Source: a virus (lineage: Duplodnaviria; Heunggongvirae; Uroviricota; Caudoviricetes). From it: DNA of 24,914 nucleotides. The DNA lies in IMG/VR virus record IMGVR_UViG_2548876945_000012. One strand, written 5' to 3'. The position numbers and the translations under genes were made by a program. Positions 9,419 through 14,600 of this stretch are shown in pieces. Each line of letters starts with the position of its first letter. Within the stretch, counting starts at the first letter, position 1. The notes beneath the pieces were generated by a model that saw only the letters and a program-made list of their open reading frames with translations, was not told the origin of the DNA and ran no database searches.

Positions 9419-9697
9419 TCACTCTGGATATTTATACTTTGAATGCAAAATAGCGCGCCGTGATTCAATATTTCTGATTCCGGTTTTATCAAAATTACAT
9501 TGTCCTAACGCTGACAACAGAGCCACATTCAACTCCAGACTAGCACCATATGTCAGTGAACTGGGTATAATTGGAATCGGTGTTTCAGAAGTCAGGCTGG
9601 CTGGCAGTGGTGCCGCCGGAATGTTCACGTAAACTGTCCGCGTACTTCCGCAACCGGTCAGCAGCGGTAGCAGGCACAGGACGTGAAGCGCAATCAT
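9419..9697 (-). CDS. Rz1-like o-spanin (lipoprotein)
   Basis: Frame overlapping the 3' part of Rz; internal Met gives MIALHVLCLLPLLTGCGS with lipobox LTGC followed by a proline-rich segment. Start codon uncertain. Confidence 0.55.
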   Translation of the reverse strand: MIALHVLCLLPLLTGCGSTRTVYVNIPAAPLPASLTSETPIPIIPSSLTYGASLELNVALLSALGQCNFDKTGIRNIESRRAILHSKYKYPE

Positions 9698-9977
9698 CAC
9701 TCGCAACAGCCACTTTGATATATTCCTGGGTTCTCTGTGACTCCAGTGCGATCTGCTGTTTTGCATGTTGATTCGCCTCCTGAATGATGTTCGTTATTGC
9801 CATAGTACGCAGAACATTCGCGGTGATAGCCTCAGTAGAATCAGCTCTCTGTTCCGCAGCGTCAGCACGCTTCTGCTCCTCCAGAAACTTTCCATGATAG
9901 TGATTCGCTGACCAGACAAGACCACCAGCAACACAAGCAATAAACGTTAAAATGAGCGCCCAATAACTCATCTTCAT
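9585..9977 (-). CDS. Rz-like i-spanin
   Basis: 130-aa protein with N-terminal TM helix and charged coiled-coil-like remainder; ATGA overlap with the endolysin stop at 9974..9977. Confidence 0.7.
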   Translation of the reverse strand: MKMSYWALILTFIACVAGGLVWSANHYHGKFLEEQKRADAAEQRADSTEAITANVLRTMAITNIIQEANQHAKQQIALESQRTQEYIKVAVASDDCASRPVPATAADRLRKYADSLREHSGGTTASQPDF

Positions 9978-10869: not shown

Positions 10870-11242
10870 CTGAACCTCCCCGGCGCGTTATGAGCGCCAC
10901 CAGCGAGCCGATATCCTGATTATTCAGGAACGTCAGGATTTTAACGGCTAAAGCAGAGACGATTACGGCACCAATAGCATCCAGAGGTTTATCACTGTAT
11001 CCGGTCAAGTTTGCCAGCTTGGAGCCAACCAACCCAGAGCAAAGGATCCCAGCAATATATGACACGATAAAATATGCCAGTCGACGCGATGCACTCAGAT
11101 CTGCTGCTGTTGCTATATAGAATACAGCCCCTGCAAATGCGCCAAATACAACGCCGTAATCAGTTCCGGTCAGCAGTCCATAAATACTAGCGCCCGTTAG
11201 GGCTCCACCAGCTAACCCTGTGCCGGAAATCGGATCGGACAT
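10856..11242 (-). CDS. Holin-like membrane protein (Gly/Ala-rich TM helices)
   Basis: ATG at 11242..11240 (MSDPISGTG...) preceded by AAGAGGTGG; 128 aa; overlaps the next holin-like gene by 14 nt. Confidence 0.5.
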   Translation of the reverse strand: MSDPISGTGLAGGALTGASIYGLLTGTDYGVVFGAFAGAVFYIATAADLSASRRLAYFIVSYIAGILCSGLVGSKLANLTGYSDKPLDAIGAVIVSALAVKILTFLNNQDIGSLVALITRRGGSGGAK

Positions 11243-11350
11243 TAGCCACCTCTTATTGCAGTGAGTCCTCTCAGAAATAGAAATGAGAGGAATAAAAAAG
11301 GCCACCATTTGGCAGCCATAGAATTGATGTAATTATAACTAATTCATTAA

Positions 11351-12157
11351 CTATTTCTTAATGATGCTATTTAACATTTCTAATGCAAAAAGCAACATGG
11401 AGCTAATAAAATATAATATAACCGCACTGGCAATCGCTCCAATTATAGCCTGGACACTCCAGTGAAAGTAATTTTTACCATTAATAACAAACTTAACACT
11501 AGGAAACAAAAAGTCGATAAGCTTAATTATTAATGGAATAGCAAAGCTCCATAAGTTCGAAAACAAAATAAAGATACAAATAAATGATAAAGCAAATGCA
11601 CCATCGATTGATAGTTTTGGCGCCAGTTTTGAGGCTGTCCATAAGCTAAGCAAAAAGCCAACTGTCACACCTGAAATCTGGATACTTAACATAGTCCAAG
11701 CTGTTCTAAAAAATCTAAATTTATTTTTGCACTTGTTAAGTAAATCCTGAATCGTAATCCATAACGAGTCAACCCACTCATTATCTTCCGATGCTACAAT
11801 CATTGTGCTGCTATTTGAATTCCTCTCATCAATTCGTAGCTCCATCCAAGATCCATTCATCCTGTTAGACTGTCGACTTTGATAAGTTTCAATAGTAAAA
11901 ATTATTTGATCAATCCTAGTGGCCTGTCTAAAGTATTTCACAAGCTCACCGATAGAATCAACTTTATATCCCTTACCATCGAACAAAATAAAAAAAACAC
12001 ATTGAGCACAAACTTCCCTACTTTCCTTTTGAGCTTGCTCATTCATTTTAACGCAGCGTTCGACAATTGCCGTGCTTAAGCTAATCAAGCTATCTTCATT
12101 TATAGAAACACCTGAAATATTCTTGCTTCTGTAAAAATATGACACTTTCGATTCCAC
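11351..12157 (-). CDS. Hypothetical protein: soluble N-terminal domain (~150 aa) plus three C-terminal TM helices; accessory (moron) gene
   Basis: 268-aa ORF in an AT-rich island; first codon is GTG (internal ATG at codon 38 is an alternative start). Hydrophobic segments near aa 165-185, 195-220 and 240-265. No family recognised. Confidence 0.5.
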   Translation of the reverse strand: MESKVSYFYRSKNISGVSINEDSLISLSTAIVERCVKMNEQAQKESREVCAQCVFFILFDGKGYKVDSIGELVKYFRQATRIDQIIFTIETYQSRQSNRMNGSWMELRIDERNSNSSTMIVASEDNEWVDSLWITIQDLLNKCKNKFRFFRTAWTMLSIQISGVTVGFLLSLWTASKLAPKLSIDGAFALSFICIFILFSNLWSFAIPLIIKLIDFLFPSVKFVINGKNYFHWSVQAIIGAIASAVILYFISSMLLFALEMLNSIIKK

Positions 12158-12322
12158 TCCGCACCAGTCTCGATTTAGCGCAGGTTAACATAACCACTTC
12201 ATTGGTAGAAGAAAAGAACTCTTCTTGTCAGAAAGCTACTGTGATATCCCTAAACCTGCAGATGATACAGAACAAAATTTAAGCATCAATTGTAGGCGAT
12301 TTTAAATTCACTTTACAGTTTA

Positions 12323-12340
12323 GGCTGCCAATTGGCAGCC
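12323..12340. promoter_or_regulatory. Perfect 18-bp palindrome GGCTGCCAATTGGCAGCC between the two moron genes
   Basis: Read directly; lies 15 nt past the stop of the 89-aa gene and upstream of the 268-aa gene; no U-run follows on either strand. Confidence 0.4.
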
Positions 12341-12354
12341 GATTGAAGCAGAAA

Positions 12355-12624
12355 TCAATGAGTGCTCATCGATGAATTTTTTTCAGCGCCAATCTCACTC
12401 AAAAAAGCAAAACCTTTTGACGTTATCTCATTAGCAATCAATCCACCTTCGGCAGATTTGCTTCGTATAACATCGATAAAACCTATATCAGCAAGATCTG
12501 AAATAGCAAAATTAACCTCTTTTGCTGAGAGATGAGGTAATGATGCAGCCTGAATTCTAGAATCCTTTGGCTGCAATTCATTCACTCGACGTAGTATTTC
12601 AAGATGGATAGAGGTCAGTTTCAT
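12355..12624 (-). CDS. Hypothetical small protein, possibly winged-helix DNA-binding
   Basis: 89 aa; ATG at 12624..12622 with AGGAG 6 nt upstream; helix / helix / beta-hairpin pattern by eye; AT-rich; followed by an 18-bp perfect palindrome. Confidence 0.5.
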   Translation of the reverse strand: MKLTSIHLEILRRVNELQPKDSRIQAASLPHLSAKEVNFAISDLADIGFIDVIRSKSAEGGLIANEITSKGFAFLSEIGAEKNSSMSTH

Positions 12625-12707
12625 AATGTTCTCCTGTTTTTAATGTTGTTTTACAGAAAACATTATAACACATTGATTTTGATGTAGATTGAATAGAAAA
12701 AAACCAT

Positions 12708-12730
12708 AAAAAAACCTCGCAATAGCGAGG
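12708..12730 (-). terminator. Intrinsic terminator downstream of Q (tR'-like)
   Basis: Minus strand reads CCTCGC-tatt-GCGAGG followed by TTTTTTT (plus coordinates 12730..12715 stem, 12714..12708 U-run). Confidence 0.55.
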
Positions 12731-12761
12731 TCGTAAAAATCGTTCAACGATAGATACACAA

Positions 12762-12797
12762 GCCCCATCGTTGAGAAAATCTTATCCATATTTTTTG
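12762..12797 (-). promoter_or_regulatory. Candidate late promoter PR' (sigma70-like) between Q and tR'
   Basis: Minus strand TTGTGT (12797..12792), 17-nt spacer, TAAGAT (12774..12769); both hexamers are weak matches. Position after Q and ~50 nt before the terminator fits the lambdoid PR'-tR' arrangement. Confidence 0.3.
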
Positions 12798-12838
12798 AGA
12801 AACACAAGCATTATGTCGTTATCTTCGGCGAAAATCGC

Positions 12839-13591
12839 TTATCTCGTCACCCTTCTCAATTGTGCTTCAGCGTAAGCTTCCTCCTGCCAGCACTTTGTAA
12901 CCAGTTTATCAATGACATCTGCATATCCTTTGTACCACTGATAATCCGTCAGGTCTGGTACCAGCTTCTGGACATGAAGCCGCGCCAGTGTGGTTGGTAA
13001 ACGGCTAAACCGGTTTCCATTGCAACGCCCACAAATCTTATAAACAGGCGTGCCATGAAGCCGGGTTCTTTTTTCATCCAGGACAATACCTTTACCCTTA
13101 CACCCTCTGCACGCTGTGCTGACTTCTCCCTTACCATGACAATGCTGACATAGTTCCTTCACCCACTCTTCCTTGATAACAGACTCCCCGCTTCTGGAGT
13201 GTTTCACCACTTCGCGCAATACATTATGAAATCCAGTACCAGCACAATGCTCACAGCGAGCCTTACTTGCCGCAGACCTGGAATAATCAGCAAAGGCAAA
13301 ATTCACAAGGTAAGGAATGATCTGTAGCCGGGTTTCTTCACTCAATTTGTTCAATGTCGGGTTATCCAGTGCCATCGCGTAATTGAGCAGACCTTCAATC
13401 GCAAACTGAGGATCCTGAACACCAACTTTTGCCAGGAATAAGGCAAACCCAAGCGGTGCTTTCGACTGCACCATCCCCTGCGCAGCCATCACATCTGTAA
13501 TTGTTAAACCACCCGAGCCTGTCGCCGGTGCGTCATCACTCAATTTTGGAGATTTTGGGGAGTAATATTTTGGTAAGGCTTCAAGGTTCAT
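12839..13591 (-). CDS. Late antiterminator Q
   Basis: ORF 12839..13633 begins with GTG; ATG at 13591 with GGAG upstream gives 250 aa. Cys-rich zinc-binding-like motifs (CEHCAGTG, CQHCHGKG, CRGCKGKG, CGRCNG); position directly upstream of PR'/tR' and the lysis genes. Confidence 0.65.
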   Translation of the reverse strand: MNLEALPKYYSPKSPKLSDDAPATGSGGLTITDVMAAQGMVQSKAPLGFALFLAKVGVQDPQFAIEGLLNYAMALDNPTLNKLSEETRLQIIPYLVNFAFADYSRSAASKARCEHCAGTGFHNVLREVVKHSRSGESVIKEEWVKELCQHCHGKGEVSTACRGCKGKGIVLDEKRTRLHGTPVYKICGRCNGNRFSRLPTTLARLHVQKLVPDLTDYQWYKGYADVIDKLVTKCWQEEAYAEAQLRRVTR

Positions 13592-13604
13592 GCTCGTTCT
13601 CCAC

Positions 13605-14600
13605 TTACGCCAGTACGCCAATTGCCAGCGCACGATCGATAAAACGAAATATCAGCTCCAGCTGGGAGCCATACTTCTCTTCAAATGCCACGGTATCCGC
13701 ATGCAGCTCGTCGTGATGCTTTCTGCACAAAGGCAACACAAAGAGGTCATGCGCTTTTGTACCCATCCCACCCTGACCGTGGCCTATCAAGTGGTGGGGA
13801 TCATCAGCAGGCTTTCCACAACATGCACACGGCTGTGTCTTAACCCAGCGCGTGTACTTTTCATTAACCCAGCGGCGACGTTTTGGGCGTAACATAAAAG
13901 ACTCCGGCGACTCCGGATCCACTTTCAGCGTCAGCACCTTTTTCGCCTTATCCTGGATGATGCTGGTGGCAGGAACCGAAGGCACAAGGTCACTTTCCCG
14001 GGTGACAGACGGCACAACAGGCTTTGGTAATCTCAGTGCCTTACGGGCTGCACTTTCCGGTAAGGCATCCGCCAGGTCATTACGAATCAGCCACCAGCAC
14101 AGTTCCGGCATTGTCACAACGTGACTATCATCAAAACCGAGATCCCGACGCACAACAGACAACACCCAGCGGGCACAGTTATCCGTTGCCATTGATTCCA
14201 GCCGTTCCGTGAACTGATCGCGCAGCTGGTTATCACAGTGCCAGCACAGACGGATTGCGCCCGGAGCGTGTCGCATTGTGGTCATGTTCTCGCTATGCCA
14301 GTCGGAATGAGGCCACTGGCAGCCTTTTTCACGAAGTAACCAGCTTTCAAGACATTCCACGCCACCAGCACGACGGATCACTGCCTCATTGCGGAACACG
14401 GCCCGAACAGCAGGATCATCCGCCAGCGGTTGTGATGCCGCGGGAACGGCACCACTGGCGAAAGATGAATAACGTTCCGGCTCAGGCTCCAGCAGTACAC
14501 GCCCCTGCATAAACAGGGGCATCAGCTCTGAACCTGGTCTGAACAATACGATCCCCATACGCGGGGCTATTTCAGGGGTCAGTAGTGCTCTCACGGTCAC
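13605..14600 (-). CDS. DUF968-like prophage protein (nin region)
   Basis: 331-aa ORF; GTG start at 14600 one nt after the KilA-N stop (alternative ATG at 14558); C-terminal Cys/His cluster (CACCGKPADDPHHLIGHGQGG...CRKHHDELH). Family assignment from memory. Confidence 0.5.
   Translation of the reverse strand: MTVRALLTPEIAPRMGIVLFRPGSELMPLFMQGRVLLEPEPERYSSFASGAVPAASQPLADDPAVRAVFRNEAVIRRAGGVECLESWLLREKGCQWPHSDWHSENMTTMRHAPGAIRLCWHCDNQLRDQFTERLESMATDNCARWVLSVVRRDLGFDDSHVVTMPELCWWLIRNDLADALPESAARKALRLPKPVVPSVTRESDLVPSVPATSIIQDKAKKVLTLKVDPESPESFMLRPKRRRWVNEKYTRWVKTQPCACCGKPADDPHHLIGHGQGGMGTKAHDLFVLPLCRKHHDELHADTVAFEEKYGSQLELIFRFIDRALAIGVLA

Follow-up and report, generated by a model that had tools for sequence, protein, structure and literature searches.

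We examined the cargo of an Escherichia coli prophage in a 24,914-nucleotide (nt) stretch of DNA (IMG/VR record IMGVR_UViG_2548876945_000012; "the window" denotes this whole stretch). Between the late antiterminator gene Q and the lysis genes, the window carries a gene for an 89-amino-acid (aa) small protein and a gene for a 264-aa inner-membrane protein. Our comparative analysis revealed that these two genes are very probably independent morons rather than a pair, and that the membrane protein belongs to an unnamed, well-conserved and phylum-spanning family that acts like a mobile solo gene. The family is the point of interest here, as unknown morons in the slot between Q and the holins are expected by specialists. 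By the published definition, a moron is extra DNA with deviating guanine-plus-cytosine (GC) content and its own promoter and terminator (PMC3594210). The explanation that we propose, with belief and doubt about evenly balanced, is that two independently acquired morons are stacked in this slot and that the membrane protein may act on its own as an effector of exclusion or abortive infection.

The sequence-only reading had interpreted the two genes as a small regulator and its membrane-inserted effector, forming one two-gene system. We did not find them to be a conserved pair. Their co-occurrence was counted in 5426 complete E. coli genomes: both genes are present in the same 41 genomes and always together. 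Identity among the copies is 99% or higher throughout, and their co-occurrence therefore represents one recent near-clonal block, the only block found. A hidden Markov model (HMM) of the small protein matched no open reading frame (ORF) in any other locus of the membrane-protein family, and none of the neighbour families was present in more than 5 of the 107 loci compared. Enterobacterial homologues of the membrane protein (51-79% identity) are always located between a Q gene and a holin, in combination with three Q families and two lysis cassettes. Upstream of these homologues lies a PF01555 (N6_N4) DNA methyltransferase or its remnant, and never the 89-aa gene. Outside the enteric bacteria, the membrane-family gene is solo and is found in unrelated chromosomal contexts across several phyla.

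The mosaic structure of the region also separates the two genes. Qin-like and other E. coli prophages with this Q module are homologous to the window only as far as about 12709-12703, just after the tR'-like terminator. Homology to the methyltransferase-type phages starts at a joint at about 12194 (49 bp ahead of the membrane gene) and extends from there through the lysis genes. The joints at about 12703 and 12194 thus delimit a separate insert of about 0.5 kb, made up of the 89-aa gene and its flanking DNA. A coupled abortive-infection or exclusion module, in which the 89-aa protein would regulate or neutralise the effector via the palindrome between the genes, would fit the adjacency of the genes on the same strand within one AT-rich island and their constant association in complete E. 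coli genomes. It would also fit a shared transcript, which is probable because the hairpin between the genes has no U-tract. Such a module is nevertheless very improbable in our judgement: the E. coli association is a single near-clonal block, relatives of the small protein are near no other family member, the equivalent slot elsewhere harbours either gene by itself or next to different partners, the joint at 12194 falls between the genes, and the palindrome is akin to a hairpin of phages without the small protein and is not kept in the Klebsiella homologues. Adjacency within the cargo slot is no evidence of a system.

Intact methyltransferase genes accompany the membrane gene in loci L002 (4886-5941), L007 (2541-3614), and L010 (4760-5806), and methyltransferase remnants were identified in L006 (2096-2296) and L008 (2042-2248), where the membrane gene is still intact. 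These neighbours suggest the alternative that the membrane protein is tied to DNA methylation, in a restriction-modification (R-M)-like or methylation-sensing role, and that the methyltransferase partner was lost in the window. The adjacency of PF01555 and the membrane gene is kept in two enterobacterial sublineages (74-75% identity for the methyltransferase and 51-55% for the membrane protein), and a type I or IIG methyltransferase is located upstream in the syntenic Nitrospirales loci L040 and L044 and in the Planctomycetales locus L053, with an S subunit identified only in L044. However, the membrane gene remains intact where the methyltransferase has decayed (L006, L008) or is absent, as in the window and most of the 107 loci, and the methyltransferase families vary by context. 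We consider a functional link to methylation extremely improbable.

The membrane gene occupies positions 11351..12145 on the minus strand, as judged from the ORF, the RefSeq annotation, and the N-terminus of the family. The sequence-only reading was right about two ORFs on one strand, here the minus strand, and about the 89 aa of the smaller product, but it assigned 268 aa to the larger one. The start codon is GTG at 12145 (264 aa) and not GTG at 12157 (268 aa), as indicated by the family N-terminus MxxYLRD together with the RefSeq annotation, and it is preceded by a weak Shine-Dalgarno (SD) sequence. The suggested architecture of a soluble N-terminal domain and three C-terminal transmembrane (TM) helices was borne out by topology analysis. 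The hydrophobic segments span approximately residues 152-172, 183-203, and 233-255, and the charge distribution fits an N-in orientation, with a predicted soluble cytoplasmic alpha/beta domain at about residues 1-148 (AlphaFold predicted local distance difference test [pLDDT] about 85). The TM helices contain the conserved polar residues Q156, S196, N197, and Q232.

The ratio of nonsynonymous to synonymous substitution rates (dN/dS) of the membrane gene is 0.16 between the window and L002 (6037-6831), compared to 0.07-0.15 for the adjacent phage genes; the gene is real and under purifying selection. In the same comparison, the N-terminal half has 68% aa identity and a dS of 1.41, versus 91% and 0.37 for the TM half, a contrast that points to an intragenic site of recombination at about residue 148. 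The protein matches phrog_30208, a family annotated as "unknown function" whose 231-aa form starts at an internal Met. In the copy of L010 (5807-6000; P0003; Hafnia/Citrobacter-type), roughly the first 33 codons of the gene can still be discerned but are severed from the rest by a stop codon, and this is why both the annotated 231-aa protein and PHROG 30208 begin at the internal Met.

The membrane protein had no Pfam, NCBIfam, PADLOC, PDB, or fold match, the PDB sequence searches covering both the single protein and the family profile, and neither window protein had a match in PADLOC-DB v2 at E<=1. The earlier impression that neither product is of a described family thus agrees with the searches of Pfam, NCBIfam, PHROG, PADLOC, and PDB. 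A profile search of 1.84 billion representatives recovered a family of 230 clusters at the threshold of E<=0.001, including 126 at E<=1e-30, and a further homologue search with a 72-sequence profile added three proteins only. Pfam gave no match among the 72 family members. Nearly all members are about 260 aa long and can be aligned over their full length. Among the almost invariant positions are D7, R54, D56, and G59 (IRFDxKGY), W124, Q156, F188, N197 and W199 (FSNxW), and P215 and F219 (FPNIxF). On the evidence of these searches, the membrane protein defines an unnamed family that is in no Pfam, NCBIfam, or PADLOC entry. Genome and metagenome scans based on a 10-sequence alignment placed its members in Gamma-, Beta-, and Deltaproteobacteria, Nitrospirota, Bacteroidota, Omnitrophota, and Planctomycetota.

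The median gap between the family gene and its neighbours is about 100 nt. Outside the enteric bacteria, no phage hallmark genes and no lysis genes were found among the neighbours, which are heterogeneous. Type I and IIG R-M genes, SoFic, AAA_21 ATPases and a transposase are among them, and one locus has an integrase together with a resolvase. The GC content of the family gene is below that of its flanks in 49 of the 53 loci with enough flank, with a mean deficit of 9.9 points (p = 6e-10); these loci were drawn from L027-L053 and L068-L142 and represent very different bacteria. On a 10.9-kb contig from JGI sample 3300047160 (P0163), a 31%-identical member is flanked by a resolvase on one side and small unknown genes on the other. 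With an integrase and an AAA_15/AAA_21 ATPase of 622 aa close by, this setting has the look of a mobile element.

The position of the membrane gene also raises the alternative that its product, expressed from the late transcript just ahead of the holins, has an accessory role in lysis and modulates the holin or the timing of lysis, for example. The gene is directly upstream of the holin in all enterobacterial phage contexts, it rides on a recombination module shared with the lysis genes, and strong expression would follow from Q read-through. Against such a function, the gene is combined with unrelated lysis sets (PF16931, PF05449, and GH19 versus PF04971 and lysozyme), it is missing from most prophages with this holin region (41/342 genomes), and a terminator separates it from the holin. 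The non-enteric loci are chromosomal and non-phage, and have no lysis genes nearby. The membrane protein matched no Pfam or PHROG lysis family (holin, antiholin, or spanin). A role in lysis is very unlikely.

The 89-aa gene (12355..12624, minus strand) matches phrog_32916, likewise a PHROG of unknown function, with an E-value of 2.9e-61 and has a strong SD sequence, AGGAG, at 12635-12631, 6 nt ahead of the ATG. A candidate extended -10 promoter, TGTTATAAT (12662..12670, minus strand), was predicted by eye just after tR'; the consensus promoter scan made no call at TGTTATAAT because a good -35 element is missing. Three AACATTA motifs are located at 12624-12630 and 12641-12647 on the minus strand and at 12659-12665 on the plus strand, so that two are direct and one is inverted. 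The 24.9-kb window has only five copies in all, and these three fall within 42 bp. They extend from the putative -10 element across the leader to the start codon of the 89-aa gene and sit in an inverted repeat (12618-12633 / 12656-12671). We regard these repeats as a candidate autoregulatory operator of the 89-aa protein.

By its best matches, the 89-aa protein is probably a winged-helix DNA binder. The winged-helix-like pattern noticed in the sequence-only reading was upheld insofar as these matches are to small winged-helix families, but all of them are below threshold. The strongest was DUF2513 (PF10711; E 2.4e-4, 21.8 bits against a gathering cut-off of 29.6), followed by HTH_45 (E 0.026) and by Lrs14 and MarR_EPS (E 0.06-0.15). 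The best PDB sequence match was the winged-helix domain of RPC6 (E 1.1). Homologues with 37-39% identity and 79 aa were found in two Klebsiella phages, and they score 17.5 and 15.8 bits with DUF2513, also below the cut-off. In these phages, the homologue is the sole gene in the Q-holin slot, in the order tR', extended -10 element TGGTAAAAT, GAGGAG, gene, and terminator. Our literature search on DUF2513, the WP accessions, and the PHROG identifiers found nothing.

The perfect 18-bp palindrome described earlier, GGCTGCCAATTGGCAGCC at 12323..12340, was confirmed; it starts 14 nt past the stop codon of the 89-aa gene, and the window contains no other perfect palindrome of at least 14 bp. The palindrome alone is only mildly unusual, since 34 of 300 composition-matched shuffles also yielded one of 18 bp. 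It matches the hairpin at 11300-11317, upstream of the holins, at 15 of 18 positions (expected count 0.01). As RNA, it would fold into a GC stem of 7 bp that closes a 4-nt loop (-18 kcal/mol, z -3.3), and a U-tract is missing. It is not conserved 3' of the Klebsiella homologues of the 89-aa gene, where a different, canonical terminator is present. The palindrome is probably a decayed, T-less copy of the slot-boundary terminator. The suggestion that it is the binding site of the 89-aa protein appears unlikely, because it resembles the pre-holin hairpin, which is present without the small protein, and because it is not conserved in Klebsiella.

Based on these comparisons, we propose that the slot of this lambdoid-type E. 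coli prophage is bounded by the Q-dependent terminator tR' and the pre-holin hairpin. The first moron (about 12703-12195) would consist of the extended -10 element, the strong ribosome-binding site, the gene for the probable DNA binder of 89 aa, which may repress its own promoter via the AACATTA repeats, and the hairpin without T-tract. The second moron would extend from 12194 through the holins and carry the 264-aa membrane protein. In the lysogen, we infer a transcript from the moron promoter that would pass the T-less hairpin, cross the membrane gene, and end at 11317-11294, where the pre-holin terminator would keep lysogen transcription off the holin. Once the prophage is induced, polymerase modified by Q would transcribe both genes and continue into the lysis genes. 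The cytoplasmic domain of the membrane protein may act as a sensor and its TM domain may act on the membrane, which would block other phages.

A self-contained anti-phage role of the membrane protein, by abortive infection or exclusion, is a tentative assignment. It is suggested by the solo mobility of the gene, its foreign composition, and its repeated capture into the prophage cargo slot, and further by the occasional R-M and recombinase neighbours, the polar TM residues, the weak translation signals, and the precedent of the inner-membrane exclusion proteins SieA and HK97 gp15. Several observations weigh against the proposed explanation. No homology of the membrane protein to any anti-phage protein was found, and PADLOC searches with the 72 family members gave nothing significant, the three isolated matches (E 0.006-0.008) involving one member each. 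Many neighbours of the family gene are housekeeping genes. A somewhat raised AT content is inherent to genes with many TM segments and accounts for part of the GC deficit. A 1-nt length change was detected in two E. coli copies, NC_020163.1 3046146-3046939 (794 nt) and NZ_CP148573.1 1867581-1868376 (796 nt), one of which is annotated as two coding sequences, so that the membrane gene is probably frameshifted in 2 of its 41 E. coli copies. With respect to the first moron, the promoters are by-eye predictions, promoter-like sites in the consensus scan were no commoner than in shuffled sequences, and the winged-helix assignment relies on sub-threshold matches, while the single-sequence AlphaFold model of the 89-aa protein (pLDDT 54, all-helical) is unreliable and too poor for a structure search.

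Some of these observations would also suit a membrane protein with a lysogenic-conversion or general accessory function, such as envelope stress, transport, or signalling, and an unrelated small protein that regulates transcription of host or phage genes. Many free-living bacteria from the environment carry the family, frequently next to housekeeping genes; it lacks a conserved partner and matched no known defence model, and selection on the gene is of the ordinary purifying and not the diversifying kind. The foreign composition, the repeated slot capture, and the sporadic R-M, Fic, and recombinase neighbours fit a mobile conflict gene better, although they are not decisive, and we hold a general accessory function to be unlikely. 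A bolder form of the anti-phage explanation, which we regard as doubtful, is that the protein is the founding member of a phylum-spanning group of single-gene anti-phage effectors in which the alpha/beta sensor gates the three-helix module. In this scheme the TM module would collapse the membrane potential or block DNA entry, and the AT-rich solo gene would move among chromosomes, R-M islands, and the Q-to-holin slot. If the gene is a true exclusion or abortive-infection gene, it would provide a compact single-gene defence with about 230 clusters in at least five phyla.

The surroundings of the two genes were characterised next to those of related prophages. The window is 100% identical to a prophage at the tRNA-Thr gene of E. 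coli F9792 and further strains, and neither the cassette nor the membrane protein had a match among sequenced phages in megablast and tblastn searches. On the minus strand, the order is Q, a hairpin with a T7 run, the 89-aa ORF, the palindrome, the membrane ORF, a second terminator, two holins, and the GH19 endolysin. The upstream border of the slot is formed by the Q-type late antiterminator gene (12839..13633, minus strand; PF03589, E 4.5e-53; phrog_127; "antitermination protein" in RefSeq) and by the tR'-like intrinsic terminator called by the terminator scan at 12704..12732 on the minus strand. The latter comprises an 8-bp stem, GACCTCGC/GCGAGGTT, and a run of seven T (predicted RNA fold -16.1 kcal/mol, z -4.9; stem 12732-12713), and it is the end of the Q module common to other E. 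coli prophages. The downstream border is a predicted intrinsic terminator at 11294..11317 on the minus strand, GGCTGCCAAATGGTGGCC followed by six T, which was identified by the terminator scan and RNA folding. This hairpin and its T-run are kept in the 77%-identical relative L002, and the hairpin is also kept in E. coli prophages with a different cargo gene replacing the membrane gene. Rfam gave sub-threshold matches only for the terminators. The first holin gene (PF16931; 10856..11242, minus strand; assigned by Pfam, PHROG, and RefSeq) opens the lysis cassette, in which family scans identified the holins PF16931 and PF05449 and then the GH19 endolysin. An overlapping ORF downstream of the endolysin (9585-9977) received no family assignment.

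The GC content is 0.34-0.39 across 11200-12800 compared to 0.48-0.57 in the flanks on both sides, in agreement with the AT-rich island between tR' and the holins noted from the sequence. Its description as a cargo site was likewise confirmed, as siblings of this prophage that share its Q module each have a different, unrelated gene (111 aa or 261 aa) as the single cargo between tR' and the holin (L056 3208-3543, L057 3225-4010, and L059 1695-2480). The cargo proteins of L056 and L057 had no Pfam match, and the 261-aa protein of L057, which was tested as a possible member of the membrane family, is not related to it. The slot is a hypervariable cargo site. If the membrane family proves to be one of exclusion or abortive-infection genes, this slot between tR' and the holin in the E. 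coli prophage lineage would also be worth mining for more cargo, given that it houses no fewer than four unrelated genes. With regard to the definition of a moron, the region is extra DNA relative to close prophages, as seen from the other genes in the slot and the joints at 12703 and 12194, and its base composition deviates from that of the flanks. The signals seen are the terminator at 11294-11317 and the by-eye promoter candidate, which has a Klebsiella counterpart and was not called by the consensus scan.

Comparison with known systems places the small protein closest to the DUF2513, HTH_45, MarR, and Lrs14 families, which provide the best, though sub-threshold, matches of both the 89-aa protein and its Klebsiella homologues and with which it shares the C-terminal pattern ...G(F/Y)I...(I)TSKGF.FL. 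It differs from DUF2513 in being shorter than the model and below the curated cut-off, with an unreliable fold prediction. The membrane protein resembles the single-protein TM abortive-infection effectors collected in PADLOC in combining a cytoplasmic domain with a C-terminal TM bundle, in its polar TM residues, in its weak translation signals, and in its location on a mobile element. In contrast to these effectors, it has no PADLOC match and no conserved signalling partner.

Two prophage proteins provide precedents for exclusion at the inner membrane. SieA of P22 is a superinfection exclusion protein with three TM helices that acts alone (PMC10883804), and gp15 of HK97 is likewise an inner-membrane exclusion protein (PMC3594210). 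Like SieA, the membrane protein is prophage-borne and predicted to be an inner-membrane protein with three TM helices; in contrast, about 148 aa of it form a conserved cytoplasmic domain, its loops on the periplasmic side are very short, and its family reaches far beyond the enteric phages. A relationship to SieA was tested and rejected (hhalign probability 11.8%, over one TM helix only), and the FxRYPxEAxxFNK motif is absent from the family alignment A2. SieB of P22 was rejected as well (hhalign probability 0.4%).

The closest parallel for the region as a whole is with the lambdoid morons in the sense of Juhala and Hendrix, such as gene 15 of HK97 and stx between Q and S. As in these elements (PMC3594210), extra DNA of deviating GC content occupies a late-operon position at the site between Q/tR' and the holin, with a flanking terminator and a putative promoter of its own. 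The region differs in that two unrelated morons are stacked, the first of them without a terminator T-tract, and the two are probably co-transcribed.

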